Part shown: positions 2,886 through 21,417 of the stretch, in pieces
How the letters are laid out: the number at the start of each line of letters is the position of its first letter
Position numbering within the stretch: position 1 is the stretch's first letter
Notes under the pieces: model-generated
Told to the model about the DNA's origin: nothing
Databases searched by the model: none
The model's input: the letters and a program-made list of their open reading frames with translations, nothing else
Virus record (IMG/VR): IMGVR_UViG_2802429225_000009
Span: 1-29,934 of that record
DNA length: 29,934 nt
Origin: a virus
Lineage: Duplodnaviria > Heunggongvirae > Uroviricota > Caudoviricetes
Direction: 5' to 3' (one strand)
Made by a program: the position numbers and the translations under genes

Positions 2886-3302
2886 ATGAACGCAAAAGAA
2901 AAAAATATTATCAATACATTAAAAATAGTGTCAGCAGAGCAAGACAAGCTGTCCAGGGCAGCCCAGAAAGATAATCAACATATGGCAGCGCTTTACGCAC
3001 TGACCATCGCAATAGCCACCTCTGAAGCAGCCAAAGTTATTGAGGAACAGAGCAAAGAAATCGACACTCTTAAAACACAGTCAACAGTTGCAACCATGAA
3101 TCCGTCCAGCATTGGACGCTGCATTTATATTCTTGGTTCAGCAATGATGCTGCGATACACCATTATTGCCGAACTGCACGGCAAATACCTGATAACGCCT
3201 TACCACACAAAAGAGTCAGAGCTTCTGACAAATCTCCGCCTGATAGAACGCTCTCAAGCTGTATTCATTGATGACGCGCAACGTGCCGTATTTAACGCAT
3301 AG
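2886..3302 (+). CDS. Hypothetical protein in an AT-rich moron
   Basis: 138-aa ORF with GGAGA RBS. The gene is visibly more AT-rich than its surroundings and follows an AT-rich gap with short direct repeats. N-terminal half looks coiled-coil-like. Confidence 0.5.
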   Translation: MNAKEKNIINTLKIVSAEQDKLSRAAQKDNQHMAALYALTIAIATSEAAKVIEEQSKEIDTLKTQSTVATMNPSSIGRCIYILGSAMMLRYTIIAELHGKYLITPYHTKESELLTNLRLIERSQAVFIDDAQRAVFNA

Positions 3303-3744: not shown

Positions 3745-3944
3745 ACAAAAAGACCTGGTTTCGCGCATACATGTGGGCGCTGGTATGCGTCCTCGTCTCT
3801 CTCATTCTGTATGCAGGACTACTCCCCCGAATGATTTCATCAGACAGCTCCTTCCTGGTATTGCTGGGCATTTTCATTGCCATGCTGTACCCGGCAGGCG
3901 TTGTTCGCCTTTTCAGTAAGTACATCAAGGAAATCAAACAATGA
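3741..3944 (+). CDS. Small integral membrane protein (two predicted TM helices)
   Basis: 67 aa with two hydrophobic stretches (WALVCVLVSLILYAGLL; FLVLLGIFIAMLYPAGVV). Coupled by ATGA overlaps to both neighbours. Sits immediately upstream of the SPFH gene, the position an NfeD-type partner usually occupies. Confidence 0.55.
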   Translation: MNKKTWFRAYMWALVCVLVSLILYAGLLPRMISSDSSFLVLLGIFIAMLYPAGVVRLFSKYIKEIKQ

Positions 3945-8897: not shown

Positions 8898-9857
8898 ATG
8901 AAAATTTGTATCGACGACGGCTCCACCAACATCAAGCTGGCATGGACTGAGAACGGCGAACGCCGCAACGCCATCAGCCCGAACAGCTTCAAGTCGGAAT
9001 GGTCTGCGCCGTTCGGTGGCACGCAGCCCGCAAACTACATGCTTGATGGCGTGCGCTATGGTTTTGATCCGGTCAGCGATCGCTTTGTCCAGACGACCGA
9101 CACGCAATACCAGTACAGCGATGTGAATGTCATTGCCATTCATCACGCGCTGGTCAAATCAGGTATCACACCACAGGAAGTGGATGTGGTTGTCACCCTG
9201 CCACTGAGCGAGTATTTCGACACAAACGCCCAGCCGGATATGACCAACATCAACCGCAAAAAAGCGAACGTTATGCGCCCGGTGGAGTATCAGAACAGTG
9301 AGGCATTCACTATCCGCAACGTACGGGTTATGCCTGAATCCATTCCGGCTGGCTTTAAGGCACTGGCTGACATGAGTCAGTTTGAATCCCTGCTGATTGT
9401 GGATTTGGGCGGAACCACGCTGGATGTGGCAAAGGTTCAGGGACAACTGGCAGGTATCAGCCAGGTGTTTTGCGATCCACACGTAGGCGTTTCTCTGATG
9501 GCCGATGCCGTGCTGTCGGTGATGGCCACCAACGGTATGCGTACCAGTCACCACATCGCTAATACCATTATCGAACATCGCCACGATGAAGCCTGGCTGC
9601 GCCAGCACATCCACAATAACGCACATTACGCCAGCCTGATGGCAGTTATTCGTGAAAAGGAGGAAACACTGAAACAACGCGTGATCCGCGCGCTGGCGGG
9701 TTTTTCGGGTTACGGGCGGGTGATGGTTGTAGGTGGAGGAGCGGAGATTGTGGCACCCGCTATCCGCGAAGCCTGCGGAGTTAATGCGACTTTCATCGCG
9801 GACGGGGTGCCACAGTTTGCTCTGGTTAATGGGCTGTACGCAATGGACAAGGAGTAA
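8898..9857 (+). CDS. parM: ParM/StbA actin-like segregation ATPase
   Basis: 319 aa. N-terminus MKICIDDGSTNIKLAW...ISPNSFKSEW...QYSDVNVIAIHHALVKSGI tracks remembered R1 ParM (MLVFIDDGSTNIKLQW...ISPNSFKREW...QYSDVNVVAVHHALLTSGL). Actin-fold phosphate motifs (DDGST; DLGGTTLD). AAGGA RBS. Confidence 0.85.
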   Translation: MKICIDDGSTNIKLAWTENGERRNAISPNSFKSEWSAPFGGTQPANYMLDGVRYGFDPVSDRFVQTTDTQYQYSDVNVIAIHHALVKSGITPQEVDVVVTLPLSEYFDTNAQPDMTNINRKKANVMRPVEYQNSEAFTIRNVRVMPESIPAGFKALADMSQFESLLIVDLGGTTLDVAKVQGQLAGISQVFCDPHVGVSLMADAVLSVMATNGMRTSHHIANTIIEHRHDEAWLRQHIHNNAHYASLMAVIREKEETLKQRVIRALAGFSGYGRVMVVGGGAEIVAPAIREACGVNATFIADGVPQFALVNGLYAMDKE

Positions 9858-10190: not shown

Positions 10191-10478
10191 ATGTCCACCA
10201 TTACCAAAGAATGGTTACAACGTAAAATCACAGAGTTTAAATCGTGGCGCGAAGACATCCCGTTCGGTCTTGATGAAGACGATCACAATATGTTAATCGC
10301 ACTGGAAATCGCACTTGCATCACTGGAAGCAGAGCCAGTGGCATGGATGCACGCAAATAATCCTATTGGAATACCGGCGATAACAAGAAGTAAAGATGTT
10401 GCAGACAGCTGGCGCTCTAAGGGATGGAATGTATTGCCTCTTTATTCACTGACCCGCTCCATCAATTTATGCCATTAA
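10191..10478 (+). CDS. Hypothetical protein, first gene of the AT-rich cassette
   Basis: Start re-set to ATG 10191 (MSTITKEWLQRKI...) with AGGAG 7 nt upstream. 95 aa. AT-richness rises sharply from about 10180. Confidence 0.45.
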   Translation: MSTITKEWLQRKITEFKSWREDIPFGLDEDDHNMLIALEIALASLEAEPVAWMHANNPIGIPAITRSKDVADSWRSKGWNVLPLYSLTRSINLCH

Positions 10479-10489
10479 TGGAAGTAATC

Positions 10490-10849
10490 ATGATGAAAGA
10501 TAATTCCGGAAGCCAGCGTGCATCAGTTGCAGTTATGGTAATGATTAAATTTGTGAAACAGTACACCGGAAAGCCAATCTCGCTCCGGCAATTAAGCAAA
10601 GAAACCGTTTCACTGTCATATCTGGAGCAAATATTCAGATATTTACGGGAAAGTAGCCTGGTAAAAGCCACACGCGGCCCGGGTGGTGGATATATCCCAA
10701 CAAAAGAAAATTACAGTGTTGGTGATATTGTCCGGGCAATGAAATGTTCCGGATTATATACACAGCACGTTATTCTGGCTGCACTGGATAATATTTCTTT
10801 AACCAGCCTGCAGGAAGACACAAATTATCAGTTGTCTGCCATTGAATAA
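10490..10849 (+). CDS. Rrf2-family (IscR/NsrR-like) winged-helix regulator, short form
   Basis: Start re-set to ATG 10490. 119 aa. The family signature SLSYLEQIFRYLRESSLVKATRGPGGGYIPTKENYSVGDIVRAM aligns with remembered IscR ([47 protein letters not shown]). The downstream segment has one Cys rather than the three-Cys cluster-ligand set. Confidence 0.7.
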   Translation: MMKDNSGSQRASVAVMVMIKFVKQYTGKPISLRQLSKETVSLSYLEQIFRYLRESSLVKATRGPGGGYIPTKENYSVGDIVRAMKCSGLYTQHVILAALDNISLTSLQEDTNYQLSAIE

Positions 10850-10853
10850 GAAA

Positions 10854-10894
10854 ACCCGGAACGGGTGCGCAAATTCTTTGTGCGCCCGTTCCGG
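10854..10894. terminator. Bidirectional hairpin terminator between the convergent Rrf2-like and ogr-like genes
   Basis: 11 perfect base pairs (CCCGGAACGGG / CCCGTTCCGGG), extendable to about 17 with wobble pairs, around a 7-nt loop (AATTCTT). A-run upstream and T-rich sequence downstream. Sits between the two stop codons. Confidence 0.6.
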
Positions 10895-10917
10895 GTTGGA
10901 CAAGCGAAGCGCGTCAG

Positions 10918-11175
10918 CTATCCGGCCTGCAACAACTCCAGCGCCATCTGTTTTTCTTCCGGGCGCATTCGTTCAATCAACAGCTTTAACACGCCATTCT
11001 CCAGCCCGCTGGGCACCAGTGTGTGCGAGTAGGTCAGGTTCATCACCCAGGTGTGCCCACACTCGAGACGGGTGCAACGGTAATAAACATCTGCAAAGCG
11101 ATCATCTTTCCAGAAGGTCTTCTCAATCACTGCGCGTTCACCACAGCAAAAACATCGCGCTTTTTGTCTGCGCAT
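10918..11175 (-). CDS. Ogr/Delta-family zinc-finger late transcription activator
   Basis: Start re-set to the ATG at 11175 (MRRQKARCFCCGERAV...YYRCTRLECGHTWVMNLTYSHTL...) with GGGAGGTGG RBS. Cys pairs CxxC...CxxxC with spacing like remembered P2 Ogr (…CPLC…QCQNVNCSATF…). 85 aa. Confidence 0.65.
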   Translation of the reverse strand: MRRQKARCFCCGERAVIEKTFWKDDRFADVYYRCTRLECGHTWVMNLTYSHTLVPSGLENGVLKLLIERMRPEEKQMALELLQAG

Positions 11176-11240
11176 TTTCCACCTCCCGGAGCAGCGTTTT
11201 CCTGCTGCTGATTTTACCTGCTCTTTTCGCATGTCGCACA

Positions 11241-12275
11241 TCACTCCGGGGGCTCATCAAATTCAAGAATAAATTTCACCTCCCCCAGTCGCCTGATATC
11301 CGGGTCACTGTTGATTCCCTCCATGATCAGGCGGCGCATCGGAATAACCTCGTCCCTGTAATATGCCTCGCGGGATTTCAGTGGGTCACCAAGCCCGGCC
11401 GTATTTGCGGGAATGATGCCGGCAAGTCCGGGTGGGAAACGGTGCGCAACGAGCTGATCCTGGGCACTGATGGTTTTTATATTCAGGAACTCATCTTTTG
11501 TACCTGAATCCCCGATAGGGATCACCTTAACGCCTTCTTTGTCTCCGCCCGGTATATTGATAAACATGGATTTAAAATTGCCCGCCCCTTTTGACGCCTC
11601 TATCTTTTTACGGAATTCCGCCTCGAGCTCGGGATCCATGTCCGGGTCAGTGGAATACAGGATATAACCAAGATGTGCGCCGTTCTTGTAATACTTGCGG
11701 CGAAAGCGGGTGGCATCCACATTCAGCATGGCGGATTCCATCCCGTGAATATAATCCGGGACACCGTAAACCTGCTGTTGTGGGTCATAAATGGCCACGA
11801 ACACCACTTCGCCTGGCTGATAAACGAGATCTTCCAGTGCTGCCTGCACAATCACCGTGCCCCCCTCGTTGTTACGCCGCAGGTACAGAGAAGGTAACGT
11901 ATGCAGGCGCACCACTCGACCGAAGCCATTGCGCACTTTAAGCAACCCCATATCCCCGAATATCAGCAGATTGGTTACTGCTGCCGCCATGGCGGCGTGT
12001 GTCATACCACCACCACCCCGAAAACCCTGCATGATCATATTGACGCGCGCACGCAATACCGCGCCGTGATACGGTGCGATATTGGACAACATGGCGAGAT
12101 CCATGCGCTCAATTGGCGGCGTGTACCAGCCGTTATAGCCATCCCAGAGCGAGCCGTAATAACAGCCCCATGCAGCGACCGGCTCCGGGTCACCAAATTC
12201 AATAAACGTCATTTTGCTGGCTGTTTTTTTTGCCACGCCATCGTGTAACACGGGGTATTTTTTCTTTTTACTCAT
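11241..12275 (-). CDS. Q: Portal protein, P2 gpQ-like
   Basis: 344 aa, the length I recall for P2 Q. Immediately downstream of, and overlapping, the large terminase gene on the same strand; divergent from the O-N-M-L operon as in P2. Confidence 0.85.
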   Translation of the reverse strand: MSKKKKYPVLHDGVAKKTASKMTFIEFGDPEPVAAWGCYYGSLWDGYNGWYTPPIERMDLAMLSNIAPYHGAVLRARVNMIMQGFRGGGGMTHAAMAAAVTNLLIFGDMGLLKVRNGFGRVVRLHTLPSLYLRRNNEGGTVIVQAALEDLVYQPGEVVFVAIYDPQQQVYGVPDYIHGMESAMLNVDATRFRRKYYKNGAHLGYILYSTDPDMDPELEAEFRKKIEASKGAGNFKSMFINIPGGDKEGVKVIPIGDSGTKDEFLNIKTISAQDQLVAHRFPPGLAGIIPANTAGLGDPLKSREAYYRDEVIPMRRLIMEGINSDPDIRRLGEVKFILEFDEPPE

Positions 12276-14055
12276 CTGACAGGATCCATGTTGATTTGCG
12301 CTTGTGCTTATAGTTCAGGGGTTCATTACTTGCGGCATGAGCTATGGCAAAGAAGATGTCAGCGTGCCCGGTTTCTTCGCTACGTTCGGCGGTAAAAGTA
12401 ACTTTATTGCCACTGTTGGTGGATTCCTGACGAATGGCCAGGAACGATGCCGGAATATCCGTAGCTTCCTCATCCCACTCAATACGGTTGGCGTAAATCA
12501 GATCCAGCATCTTCATCACCAGGCGGTTTTTGGATTCCACGCTGTAATGAATGGCCACTGTTTCACGGCGGGCAAATCCCTGAACCAGCTCAAAGACACC
12601 GTAGCCAAGACCGGTGACGTCAATGCCGATAAACGTCATGTTATAGCGTGCCTTAATGCTGCGGATACGCTCTGCCATAAACTGGAATGACATGCTGCGC
12701 CAGTGGTGTTTTTCCAGCACGCGGAATCGTTCTGCCGCAACCAGCGGCGGTGCCAGCACAACAAATGTGGCGTTATCGCCGGAGCGCGCAGGGTCAAAGC
12801 CGCCCCAAACCTCACGGTTACCAAATGGCATGGGCTCTTCCGGGTGAAAATCCTCCCACGTACTGACATCAACACCACAACGCACAAGATCATCGAATTT
12901 AAAGACGCTCTCTTTGTCATCCACAAACACACACATAAACAGCATATTGAACGCTGTTTCGTTGTATCGCTCGCGCAGTTCGTTGATGTCAGCAAGGTTA
13001 AAGCCGCCGGCAATGGCATCTTCCAGCGTAACCACATAGCGCCACTGACCATCCGGACATTCACGCCCACCATCGCGCAGCTCATCAAAGGACGGAAACT
13101 CAACCCCTTTTCGTTTCGGATCGCCTTTGCGCCATTCATCGCCAGACCAGAACGGGTAACCCTGGTGTGTTTTGGATGACGGCGTGGAGAAATAGGTAAT
13201 GCGCCAGTGTTTATGGGTGGCCATCCCTGATGCCACTTCATTGAGACGGCGAAAACCGGGGATCCACAGGTATTCATCAATATACAGGTGGCCGCTGTTT
13301 GACTGCGCTGTGTTACTGTTGGTCGCCAGAAAATACAGTTCAGCCAGATTACTTAACTTAACCGGATTGCCTTTAATGGGAATGCCAAACTCTGTTTGTG
13401 CAATTTTTACAATATAAGTACGGAACACTTCGGCCTGACGTTTTGATGCCGATAAAAATATCTGTGTGTCGCCGGTTAATACTGCATCTTCAAATGCCTC
13501 AAACGCGAAGTAATACGTCGCCCCAATCTGGCGGGATTTAAGCAGGTTGCGTACACGGCGGAATTTGTTTTCACGCAGATGCAACTGATAAGCAAACAAC
13601 TTTTTCGTAAACGGCTCAAAACTTTCAGCAGTCAGTCCGGAAACGTCATTAGTTTTGCGGGGACGCTCTTTCTTACCTGCACCTTTTTCTCCGCGTTCTT
13701 CTTTTCCATAACGGCCAGGCTGGGGGATGTCCACTCCCATTCGCGCAATCTCAGCCATTCGTTCCGTGTGCTTGTTTCTGACCGACATTAGTTTGACGTG
13801 ATGACCAATCAGGCGGTCGAGTTCATCGTGTTCTTCCGGCGTTTTATGGTCACGCTCCGCCAGTACAGCGAGACGCCGGGCGATAACATCCTCCACACCT
13901 TCCGTATTGAGCTGCGTGTACCACTCAAACTTTGTCGCCCAGTAATAAACAATTCGCGGGCTGTTCAGTCCGAGTTTCTTTTGTATTTCTTTTGGTGTGT
14001 GCCTTTTCAGATAGAGCGATTTTGCAGCAGCAATCACCTCATCAGAATACGCCAT
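12268..14055 (-). CDS. P: Terminase large (ATPase) subunit, P2 gpP-like
   Basis: 595 aa. Walker-type region near the N-terminal third (RQIGATYYFAFEA...) and nuclease-domain acidic residues. Size and position match P2 P. Confidence 0.9.
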   Translation of the reverse strand: MAYSDEVIAAAKSLYLKRHTPKEIQKKLGLNSPRIVYYWATKFEWYTQLNTEGVEDVIARRLAVLAERDHKTPEEHDELDRLIGHHVKLMSVRNKHTERMAEIARMGVDIPQPGRYGKEERGEKGAGKKERPRKTNDVSGLTAESFEPFTKKLFAYQLHLRENKFRRVRNLLKSRQIGATYYFAFEAFEDAVLTGDTQIFLSASKRQAEVFRTYIVKIAQTEFGIPIKGNPVKLSNLAELYFLATNSNTAQSNSGHLYIDEYLWIPGFRRLNEVASGMATHKHWRITYFSTPSSKTHQGYPFWSGDEWRKGDPKRKGVEFPSFDELRDGGRECPDGQWRYVVTLEDAIAGGFNLADINELRERYNETAFNMLFMCVFVDDKESVFKFDDLVRCGVDVSTWEDFHPEEPMPFGNREVWGGFDPARSGDNATFVVLAPPLVAAERFRVLEKHHWRSMSFQFMAERIRSIKARYNMTFIGIDVTGLGYGVFELVQGFARRETVAIHYSVESKNRLVMKMLDLIYANRIEWDEEATDIPASFLAIRQESTNSGNKVTFTAERSEETGHADIFFAIAHAASNEPLNYKHKRKSTWILSDE

Positions 14056-14130
14056 AAATAAACCTCACCTGCTGATGCAATTTTAATTTATGCATTTTCA
14101 GCAAAGGCTTTTTTAAAAACGAATATCGCT

Positions 14131-14176
14131 TTTCGGTATTTTTCGGATATATGCGCATATCCGAAAGTACCGGAAA
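14131..14176. promoter_or_regulatory. Nested palindrome in the divergent late promoter region
   Basis: TTTCGGATAT-ATGCGC-ATATCCGAAA (14141-14166) has perfect 10-bp arms. It is flanked by further half-sites TTTCGG (14131-14136) and CCGGAAA (14170-14176). The centre (~14153.5) falls within 1 bp of the midpoint between the P start (14055) and the O start (14250). Confidence 0.45.
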
Positions 14177-14249
14177 TTAATCAGATGACGACGTTTTCAT
14201 TTCTCCGTTAAATAACGCCAGTTTAATTTTTATCAGCGGATTAATTCAG

Positions 14250-15146
14250 ATGACGAAGCAGAAAACAGACTGGGTTGTGGTTGCCACATCAGGCCCCACC
14301 ATCGACGGTCGGGAAATTGAACCGAAGTGGCTGACGGATGCCGCCGAGGTTTACAACCCGGACGAGCGAGCCGCCATGCTCTGGCCATATCACGCCGATT
14401 CCGGATGGCGTGCCTTCACCAATAACTACGGCATTGTTGATGCCCTGAAAGTCGAAAAATTTGGTGAAAAGGTGCAGCTTAAAGCACGCCTGATCCCAAA
14501 TCGCTTCCTGATTGAAGCCAATAAGGCCGGGCAGAAACTTTTTACCTCCATTGAAGTGCGGGAAAACTATCTGGGCACGGGCAAATTCTTTGTGTCCGGT
14601 ATCGCCGTGACGGATACCCCAGCCAGCATTAACACTACACGCCTGCAGTTTTCCATGGGGGAAGCCATCCATATGGGCAACGCAGAGGCGCTGAATTTTA
14701 CGCTGCAGCCTGATGATGAGCAGGCCAAACGCAACTTCTTCTCCCGCTTCTTCTCATCTGACAATCACCAACAGGGAATTTACCAAGCCATGAACGAAGA
14801 ACAGTTCAGCCAGTTAATGGGTGCCATTAATAAAACCAGTGAACGCCTGGACGAGCTGGAAAAAAACGTCGCGCAGTTCAGCGCGAAGGATGCCTCGAAA
14901 GATACCGGTGATAACAAGCCGGAAGGCAGCACCGGCGTTCAGGGGCAGGACAACGCAGAACAGAACAACAAGGACGACAAAACCTTCACGCTGACCACCG
15001 AGCAGGGCGAAAAGCTGTTCTCCACAGTGAACGCCATCGCGGAGAAGGTTACCAGTATGGAAACCGCATTTGCTGAACTCAGCAAGGACGCCACGAAGCT
15101 GCCGGGCAACAATCCGGCCGGTGGCGAAACTTTTAACCTGGTGTAA
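14250..15146 (+). CDS. O: Capsid scaffolding protein, P2 gpO-like
   Basis: 298 aa. First gene of the rightward late operon. Acidic, low-complexity C-terminal half. Position and size match P2 O. Confidence 0.8.
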   Translation: MTKQKTDWVVVATSGPTIDGREIEPKWLTDAAEVYNPDERAAMLWPYHADSGWRAFTNNYGIVDALKVEKFGEKVQLKARLIPNRFLIEANKAGQKLFTSIEVRENYLGTGKFFVSGIAVTDTPASINTTRLQFSMGEAIHMGNAEALNFTLQPDDEQAKRNFFSRFFSSDNHQQGIYQAMNEEQFSQLMGAINKTSERLDELEKNVAQFSAKDASKDTGDNKPEGSTGVQGQDNAEQNNKDDKTFTLTTEQGEKLFSTVNAIAEKVTSMETAFAELSKDATKLPGNNPAGGETFNLV

Positions 15147-16902: not shown

Positions 16903-17000
16903 ACGACTCCCAACAACCGGGCGGGCGCGGTGGAGGTGTGCCGGCAAAAGCCATCAGCACACTGCGGAAACCGGTCAGCCCGCCTTTCCCCGGAGTGAGC

Positions 17001-20608: not shown

Positions 20609-20613
20609 CAGCA

Positions 20614-20715
20614 ATGCTGTCCCGCAGGGAACAAAAAGCTGCCGCCATTGCCTGGAAAATTATCCGGGCACTGTGGTACTGGCTGCGCAAACCTCAGCAA
20701 CCTCATAAGGAGTAA
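20614..20715 (+). CDS. Possible 33-aa amphipathic peptide between the holin and endolysin genes
   Basis: ATG at 20614 with AGGAG 8 nt upstream. Translation MLSRREQKAAAIAWKIIRALWYWLRKPQQPHKE. Below the track cutoff. Confidence 0.25.
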   Translation: MLSRREQKAAAIAWKIIRALWYWLRKPQQPHKE

Positions 20716-20717
20716 AA

Positions 20718-21059: not shown

Positions 21060-21065
21060 TTTTAC

Positions 21066-21115
21066 GCTTAATAAGCCTTCCTGCAGGCTTATTAAGCCCT
21101 CTTATTCTTGACTTT
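21066..21115 (+). terminator. Hairpin with T-rich tail inside the late operon (candidate attenuator)
   Basis: Perfect 12-bp stem GCTTAATAAGCC (21066-21077) / GGCTTATTAAGC (21086-21097) with an 8-nt loop, followed by CCTCTTATTCTTGACTTT. The T-tract is interrupted, so termination is probably partial. Confidence 0.4.
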
Positions 21116-21123
21116 AAAAGGAA

Positions 21124-21417
21124 ATGATGATGAACGATAAAAACACACAGACTACCGCAGAGAACACCATCACTTTACAGGTCGGCGAGCATGAACTGAC
21201 GTTTATCCCGACCGTAAAAGCCTACAACGACCTGCAGAACGACTTCATGCCGGATAACAAAATCGCGCCGCTGAAAAACTACCTGCGCCGTATCGTGATT
21301 AAAGAGCACCGCGATCTGCTGAACCAGTTGCTGGAAAAACCAGGAATGCCGGCCAGCCTGGCAACAGCCGTGAATAACGAGTTTGTGCCGGAAGTGGAAA
21401 TCACCGTAAAAAAATAA
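21124..21417 (+). CDS. Tail assembly chaperone (gpE/gpG-like), zero-frame product
   Basis: 97-aa acidic protein immediately upstream of the tape-measure gene. Ends in a poly-A slippery heptamer. Confidence 0.6.
   Translation: MMMNDKNTQTTAENTITLQVGEHELTFIPTVKAYNDLQNDFMPDNKIAPLKNYLRRIVIKEHRDLLNQLLEKPGMPASLATAVNNEFVPEVEITVKK

Follow-up and report, generated by a model that had tools for sequence, protein, structure and literature searches.

Which protein reads the symmetric element that lies between the two divergent late operons of a P2-like prophage, and does this one element serve both of them? The question is raised by the window studied here, i.e. the whole stretch of 29,934 nucleotides of the IMG/VR virus record IMGVR_UViG_2802429225_000009, in which a first-pass annotation had pointed out a nested palindrome between the terminase and scaffold start codons. 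Below we describe the prophage and the element, then the conservation of the element and its distance to the predicted promoters, and finally the candidate binder, the alternatives and the known systems.

The prophage and its late operons

The window is a P2-like E. coli prophage; of 5426 complete E. coli genomes, 42 carry it. In the phage collection, nucleotide searches in near and distant modes find no relative among the sequenced phages; relatives are reached via E. coli genomes and by tblastn with the terminase. With the scaffold protein, the genome-contig search gives one locus only, which is from E. albertii. The closest phages by terminase protein share at most 60% identity and belong to other Peduoviridae genera, with Yersinia, Escherichia/Cronobacter, Salmonella, Aeromonas, Salinivibrio and Vibrio as source hosts. 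According to the RefSeq annotation of a 99.6% identical copy, the prophage carries an integrase, a C-type repressor, Cox, a replication endonuclease, ParM, an Rrf2 regulator and an ogr/Delta-like zinc-finger gene, followed by portal and terminase on the minus strand, while the plus strand shows one long array, from scaffold, capsid and small terminase via lysis to a tail module of the K139/HP1 type.

In the window, the leftward late operon begins with the terminase large subunit (P2 gpP homologue, 12268..14055, minus strand), followed by the portal (gpQ homologue, 11241..12275, minus), and directly downstream of the portal lies a gene for an Ogr/Delta-like C4 zinc-finger protein of 85 aa (10918..11175, minus), which we propose as the binder of the palindrome. 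The long rightward late operon (head, lysis and tail) begins with the capsid scaffold (gpO homologue, 14250..15146, plus). The terminase(-portal) and scaffold operons thus diverge across a short non-coding gap, which is the arrangement of the P2/186 type.

A few other features of the window are also recorded here. A ParM-type segregation ATPase with a partner gene and the Rrf2-family regulator (8898-9857 and 10490-10849) lie between the replication gene and ogr, and in a relative with 73% identity, E7-1N7, this position is taken by other cargo. The convergent Rrf2 and ogr genes have a long GC-rich inverted repeat between them (10853-10896, AACCCGGAACGGGTGCGCA ... TGCGCCCGTTCCGGGTT), probably a terminator for both directions, at which the early transcripts as well as those of terminase-portal-ogr would end. 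In the gap between endolysin and tail chaperone, a hairpin GCTTAATAAGCCT-N6-AGGCTTATTAAGC followed by TTCTTGACTTT (21066-21110) has no TTCGG unit, and could be an internal attenuator or terminator with a promoter-like TTGACT after it.

Sequence and symmetry of the palindrome

The terminase-scaffold gap, 14056-14249, is 194 bp long with its midpoint at 14152.5, and the centre of the palindrome is at 14153.5, so the symmetry centre is indeed placed within 1 bp of the midpoint between the two start codons, as had been claimed. The inner palindrome occupies 14141..14166 and reads TTTCGGATAT-ATGCGC-ATATCCGAAA, with the core TTCGG-N14-CCGAA. Here the repeat finder agrees with the first-pass annotation, which had described a 26-bp element having perfect 10-bp arms: the arms 14141-14150 and 14157-14166 are 10 nt each, 100% complementary, and 6 nt apart. 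We propose the inner palindrome as the primary activator site, common to both late promoters. The full array, 14130-14177, reads TTTTCGGTAT TTTTCGGATAT ATGCGC ATATCCGAAA G TACCGGAAAT, and the repeat finder also pairs TTTCGG at 14131-14136 with CCGAAA at 14161-14166. The left outer half-site, TTTTCGGTAT at 14130..14139, is upstream of its inner counterpart by 10 bp (one helical turn); the right outer half-site, TACCGGAAAT at 14168..14177, mirrors it imperfectly, its GAAA being offset by 10 bp from that of the right inner half-site. The array of four units noticed at the outset is therefore present, but not as four exact TTTCGG/CCGAAA copies, since the fourth unit is CCGGAAA (14170-14176) and is made imperfect by an extra G.

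Our analysis confirms that the palindrome is real and more than a product of chance. With at most 3 mismatches allowed, the pattern TTCGGNTAT-N6-ATANCCGAA is found a single time in the window, where 0.07 occurrences are expected. Folded as a DNA hairpin, the 56-nt stretch reaches -12 kcal/mol (z = -3.46), and none of 200 shuffles folds equally well. The bare TTTCGG/CCGAAA hexamers are found 21 times in 30 kb, approximately the chance frequency, and they are in no other intergenic gap of the window. It had also been suggested to look for the half-site upstream of the other late genes; within the window, the other intergenic gaps of the late region (16903-17000, 20609-20717, 21060-21129 and 11176-11240) are all free of the TTCGG-type unit. 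The two further exact matches to CCGAA-N5-CNGAA, at 2705 (-) and 27583 (+), lie within coding sequence and are taken as chance. As to the classical motif TGT-N12-ACA, there is no match in 14056-14249, and all six matches of the window are elsewhere.

Conservation of the element

Within the E. coli lineage, 16 distinct copies, some of them from IMG/VR contigs, show changes at all 6 positions of the spacer but at a single position of the arms, the latter in the copy that is most distant. Ten relatives, with flanks as little as 73% identical, keep the inner arms in a gap that otherwise diverges. Arms that are conserved around a spacer that is free to change are characteristic of two half-sites recognized by their sequence, and not of a structure that depends on pairing. 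In two variants the terminase-proximal third of the gap is replaced and the gap is longer by 36 bp, with the array kept. These are L003 (FHI_NMBU_10) and L005 (Z1324SEC0014), seen in columns 70-140 of alignment A1; the extra 36 bp contain a tandem CGTTCCGTAA CGTTCCGTAA repeat in the predicted terminase leader, and the palindrome and a -10-like AATAAT stay at unchanged offset. A different observation concerns E7-1N7 (L009, 15618-15641), in which the spacer CCACAA gives, together with the left arm, a perfect DnaA-box 9-mer TTATCCACA, and in which a TGT-N12-ACA match, TGTTTTCGGTTATCCACA, overlaps the left arm. Both are found in no other copy and are thus probably coincidental.

Across genera, each related genome examined has a single TTCGG-N14-CCGAA, and it is invariably located in the terminase-scaffold gap. 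The N14 carriers are the E. coli relatives including E7-1N7, Yersinia YenM_324, Cronobacter ESSI-2, Aeromonas A051 and Vibrio K139; an N13 version is present in Escherichia ev239, Salinivibrio SMHB1 and Vibrio yong1. In Salmonella SW5 and Haemophilus HP1 the site is degenerate or extended, its 10-bp phasing being unchanged. Absence of the site from homologous phages had been named as a result that would speak against a regulatory element; what we find is that the element is kept in this gap in several phage genera. Outer units, TTC(G/T/C)G and CNGAA(A/C), are located 10 bp outside the inner ones in most lineages, and are weak or degenerate in several, the inner inverted pair being by far the best conserved part.

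We then scanned IMG/VR for exact matches to the 18 specified bases. Overall, 38 contigs match; 36 of these have the match in the gap from which the terminase and scaffold genes diverge. The remaining two, on metagenome contigs (L021 5706-5729 and L027 3295-3318), are one very AT-rich sequence, AAATTCGGATATTACATAATATCCGAATTT, and no terminase or scaffold similarity is found near these matches. In addition, the corresponding gap of Pseudoalteromonas PY3 (L018, about 2395-2425) is without the TTCGG dyad. It has a TTCCTA-N11-TAGGAA palindrome, and the Ogr-like protein of this phage is more divergent (ECGATFRITQSFDHFLNPP). PY3 may represent a third specificity class, and as a single case it fits a co-variation of protein and site.

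Predicted promoters and their distance to the palindrome

A strict sigma-70 scan detects no promoter in the terminase-scaffold gap. The promoters given below are predictions from an anchored comparison of the two flanks. On the scaffold side, the predicted late promoter (PO equivalent) is at 14185..14213 on the plus strand, with a -35-like ATGACG (14185-14190), a 17-bp spacer and a -10-like TTAAAT (14208-14213), and transcription would start near 14220-14221. On the terminase side, the predicted promoter (PP equivalent) is at 14094..14122 on the minus strand, with a -35-like TCGTTT (14122-14117), again a 17-bp spacer and a -10-like GAAAAT (14099-14094), giving a start near 14086-14087. The terminase-side sequence CTGAAAAT is also the -10 region of the P2 PF promoter.

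The comparison includes 46 distinct promoter sides, many of them closely related, each read as it would be transcribed, with the first C of the nearer CCGAA of the inner pair as position 1. In about 11 lineages, and on both sides, positions 48-53 (a 47-nt offset) hold a -10-like hexamer, examples being TTAAAT, GAAAAT, CATAAT, TATGAT and AATACT. The mean match to TATAAT is 3.39 at these positions, against about 1.7 at other offsets, and A2 and T6 are present together in 25 of the 46 sides. In addition, xTGxxx at positions 25-30 leaves a 17-bp spacer to the -10-like hexamer. With starts predicted near 14221 (+) and 14086 (-), 135 bp apart, the dyad centre would be about -67.5 from each; the nearer inner half-sites would lie at -60..-56 and the outer half-sites at -50..-46, the left one with respect to the terminase promoter and the right one with respect to the scaffold promoter.

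Two or three IMG/VR lineages (L022, L032 and L049) show another spacing, both -10 hexamers being about 10 bp closer. L049 is without both outer units and L022/L032 without the scaffold-side one, and all keep a perfect inner dyad, which is predicted to lie near -57, like the -55.5 of P2. Since the -10 hexamers are shifted by one turn in these lineages, the same dyad would appear to work from two positions, and the outer units are predicted to appear where the extra helical turn needs bridging.

The terminase starts give independent support to the -10 assignment. In K139, yong1, SMHB1, YenM_324, ESSI-2 and SW5 (loci L010, L012, L013, L016, L017 and L019 for the ATG-hexamer distance), the terminase ATG lies 6-8 nt past the -10-like hexamer and is without a Shine-Dalgarno sequence, a spacing of the leaderless type. 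This predicts that terminase mRNAs are leaderless in several K139-type phages. In the window lineage, the terminase leader is about 30 nt long and has GGTGAGG.

On the scaffold side, ATTAAT(T)CAGATGACGA is found twice, over the predicted -35 region (14176-14191) and over the scaffold start codon (14240-14256). The ATG at 14185 in the first copy opens an ORF of 8 codons only, located upstream of the predicted start site. The gene start may have been duplicated long ago, or the pair may be coincidental.

The Ogr-like protein as candidate binder

The product of 10918-11175 belongs to Pfam PF04606 (E = 2.1e-11, 44 bits against a cut-off of 26.3), and has the Ogr-like zinc finger CX2CX22CX4C with cysteines 8, 11, 34 and 39. 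Its identity to P2 Ogr is 23% over 43 aligned residues. In the multiple alignment, the Ogr-like proteins of the carrier phages show 19% identity to P2 Ogr; they keep CX2CX22CX4C and have ECGHTFVxNLxFSHTLSPS in common. Every site-bearing phage genome examined, complete or partial, has a PF04606 protein after or near the portal, as shown for the window, E7-1N7, YenM_324, ev239, ESSI-2, SW5, K139 (orf13) and L032; in the partial loci L023 and L049, no Ogr-like ORF is found just after the portal. A search of PDB by sequence finds no member of the Ogr/Delta family, only weak zinc-ribbon matches.

Some genes of this family are missing from the annotations or only loosely named there. In A051 there is an unannotated Ogr-family ORF of 84 aa (L015 5388-5642, plus), and in yong1 one of 150 aa with two tandem zinc-finger domains (L017 5725-6177, plus). 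SMHB1 has the tandem two-domain form as well (145 aa), annotated only as 'transcriptional regulator'. HP1 has an unannotated Ogr-like gene downstream of the portal (L058 2418-2710, minus; NC_001697 about 10417-10709), which is split over two frames (...IYCTVCNSNQ / ...YYCACKNPLCGHRFVMNMEFSHT...), indicating a frameshift or a sequencing error.

Other regulators are not common to the site carriers: repressors are of the C type or the CI type, CII and Rrf2 are not shared, and the immunity modules differ. We also considered the Rrf2 regulator (10490-10849) as the binder and rejected it, as its gene is found in this E. coli lineage only and is absent from the annotations of E7-1N7, YenM_324, ev239, ESSI-2 and K139, all of which keep the site. 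We assign the site to the phage's own Ogr-like protein, and consider this assignment probable. As the site has no TGT-N12-ACA match, the evidence for it is entirely that of co-occurrence and position. The first-pass annotation had proposed a shared site for a symmetric regulator, possibly the Ogr-like protein, and the sequence comparison agrees with it in four respects: the half-sites are conserved, there is one site per genome, the distance to the -10 hexamers is fixed, and ogr co-occurs.

A model of late activation

From these results we suggest that the symmetric array of about 46 bp at 14130-14177 would be an upstream activator-binding region common to both divergent late promoters. The Ogr/Delta-family protein encoded at 10918-11175 (minus) would bind the inner TTCGG-N14-CCGAA dyad as a symmetric oligomer, and would make further contacts with the outer half-sites, which lie one turn of the helix away to the left and to the right. 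The bound activator would then activate RNA polymerase at both weak promoters, so that transcription from near 14086 would run leftward through terminase, portal and probably ogr, and that from near 14221 rightward from scaffold through the tail genes. P2 Ogr contacts the alpha subunit of RNA polymerase, and by analogy the protein studied here may do the same. We infer the identity of the binder, its stoichiometry, the start sites and the alpha contact.

As judged from sequence, it is rather likely that the array is the late-activator operator of a P2-like prophage of the K139/HP1 type and is bound by the prophage's own Ogr-like protein. There is a further picture to which we lean only slightly. 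In this picture, Ogr/Delta proteins of the K139/HP1 type would recognize 9-bp TTCGGATAT units, four of which at 10-bp phasing extend over about 46 bp and would be occupied by a dimer of dimers or by two fused-domain proteins; one complex near -67.5 would drive two divergent promoters, one of them often leaderless, with a specificity and a geometry unlike those of TGT-N12-ACA.

Alternative explanations

Could the same binder instead use two back-to-back sites, each of them a direct repeat CCGAA-N5-CNGAA belonging to one promoter and centred near -53, so that the overall symmetry merely follows from the divergence of the promoters? Such repeats are present on both sides in most lineages, and the pair formed by the nearer inner and the outer unit, centred near -53, is close to the -55 of P2. 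SW5 also keeps its left-outer and right-inner units, while the left-inner and right-outer ones are degenerate. However, it is the inner inverted pair that is best conserved, with its spacing held at N13/N14, and the outer units are the ones that degenerate; L049 and L022/L032 lose outer units and keep a perfect inner dyad, with their -10 hexamers 10 bp closer. We thus regard the two-site arrangement as unlikely. A host transcription factor, or a phage protein other than the Ogr-like one, acting on the palindrome as repressor or activator is still less probable. The motif is unlike the known Ogr/B/Delta consensus, and the hosts, being all Gammaproteobacteria, could have a factor in common; but the exact motif in IMG/VR is almost confined to the terminase-scaffold gap of P2-like genomes, and no other phage regulator is conserved across the carriers (Rrf2 is missing in E7-1N7 and K139, and the immunity modules differ). 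A full-text literature search for the motif strings also returns nothing relevant, with unrelated primer or shRNA matches only and no description of the motif. To our knowledge, no E. coli regulator has a TTCGG-N14-CCGAA consensus.

There is hardly any room for a structural role in DNA or RNA (a cruciform, a terminator or an attenuator hairpin) or for a packaging (cos) signal, although a 19-bp interrupted hairpin is possible (-12 kcal/mol, z = -3.46) and the palindrome lies next to the terminase gene. The terminator scan does not call the palindrome, no T-run comes after it and the stem is AT-rich; moreover, the palindrome is upstream of both predicted starts, so that it would be transcribed by neither late operon. 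The arms are conserved as sequence and not merely as pairing partners. As for cos, the P2 cos 19-mer has no match here with at most 3 mismatches, and the cos sites of P2 and 186 are located beyond the portal gene, unlike the palindrome.

Implications

The element is a candidate operator by which late genes would be controlled in the K139/HP1-type Peduoviridae, a large branch of P2-like prophages that has been little studied and ranges over E. coli, Yersinia, Cronobacter, Aeromonas and Vibrio, with degenerate sites in phages of Salmonella and Haemophilus. The motif can serve as an annotation marker of the late-promoter hub, and predicts start sites as well as leaderless terminase mRNAs. If the assignment is true, the Ogr/Delta family would cover at least two unrelated-looking recognition sequences. 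In that case, as no family member is detectable by sequence in PDB, the conserved and easily synthesised site would be a defined substrate for studies of how these proteins read DNA. The known logic of P2-type late regulation is left unchanged.

Comparison with P2, 186, K139 and P4

The first-pass annotation had taken each classical P2 late promoter to have its own activator site, and a single shared symmetric site to be a different architecture. For this promoter pair, the phage records show otherwise. In the GenBank record of P2, one 'activator binding site; pO, pP promoters' is annotated at 3057-3087 for the two promoters; the transcripts start at 3016 (-) and 3127 (+), and TGT-N12-CCA at 3063-3080 is centred 55.5 bp from each. 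The record of 186 likewise has a single B-protein site (3798-3817, 'activation of pV and p12 promoters'), located between the homologues of terminase and scaffold. The B gene itself is elsewhere in the 186 genome. In Smp131, PP' and PO' are an identical 18 bp (PMC3931495). From the shared sites of P2, 186 and Smp131, a symmetric site common to divergent late promoters is an established design, and it is the layout that the window also shows.

The likeness to P2 includes the divergent terminase and scaffold operons with one dyad-type site between them, and a small C4 zinc-finger activator of PF04606; the P2 promoters are weak and depend on their activator. As predicted for the terminase mRNAs of several K139-type phages, the transcript from PV of P2 is leaderless, its annotated start being the first base of the V coding sequence. 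The differences lie in the site and its surroundings. The P2 site is of the TGT-N12-ACA type (in this P2 gap TGT-N12-CCA) and the 186 site of the TGTTGT type, with no TTCGG units, whereas the window has TTCGG-N14-CCGAA and two outer half-sites. The dyad of the window is predicted at about -67.5 and that of P2 is at -55.5, so the former would lie farther upstream by about one helical turn. There are four late promoters in P2, and its ogr adjoins att; in the window this site is the only one found, and ogr comes after the portal.

K139 is the closest sequenced relative of the element itself. Its orf16/orf17 gap shows nearly the same inner palindrome, TTTCGGATAT-AACCCC-ATATCCGAAT, the arms being identical to those in the window; outer units are present as well, and its orf13 encodes an 83-aa zinc-finger protein beyond the portal gene, with orf14 between. 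Only the putative sigma-70 promoters P16 and P17 are annotated in this gap in the K139 record, and no activator site. The -10 signal of the putative P16 (15488-15493, in L019 15488-15519) overlaps the left palindrome arm, and the -35/-10 signals listed in the record do not match the hexamers at their coordinates. That ogr follows the portal in K139 and Smhb1 is already in print (PMC8537503).

The proteins of yong1 (150 aa) and SMHB1 (145 aa), both with N13 sites, consist of two fused Ogr-like domains and resemble P4 Delta in this. Delta of the satellite P4 is a tandem-duplicated Ogr-like activator. Unlike P4, yong1 and SMHB1 are helper-type phages and not satellites, and their sites are of the TTCGG type. 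Compared with P2 and 186, the window differs in the recognition sequence, the four-unit phased array and the predicted extra helical turn; the motif and its spacing are new, while the architecture is ordinary.
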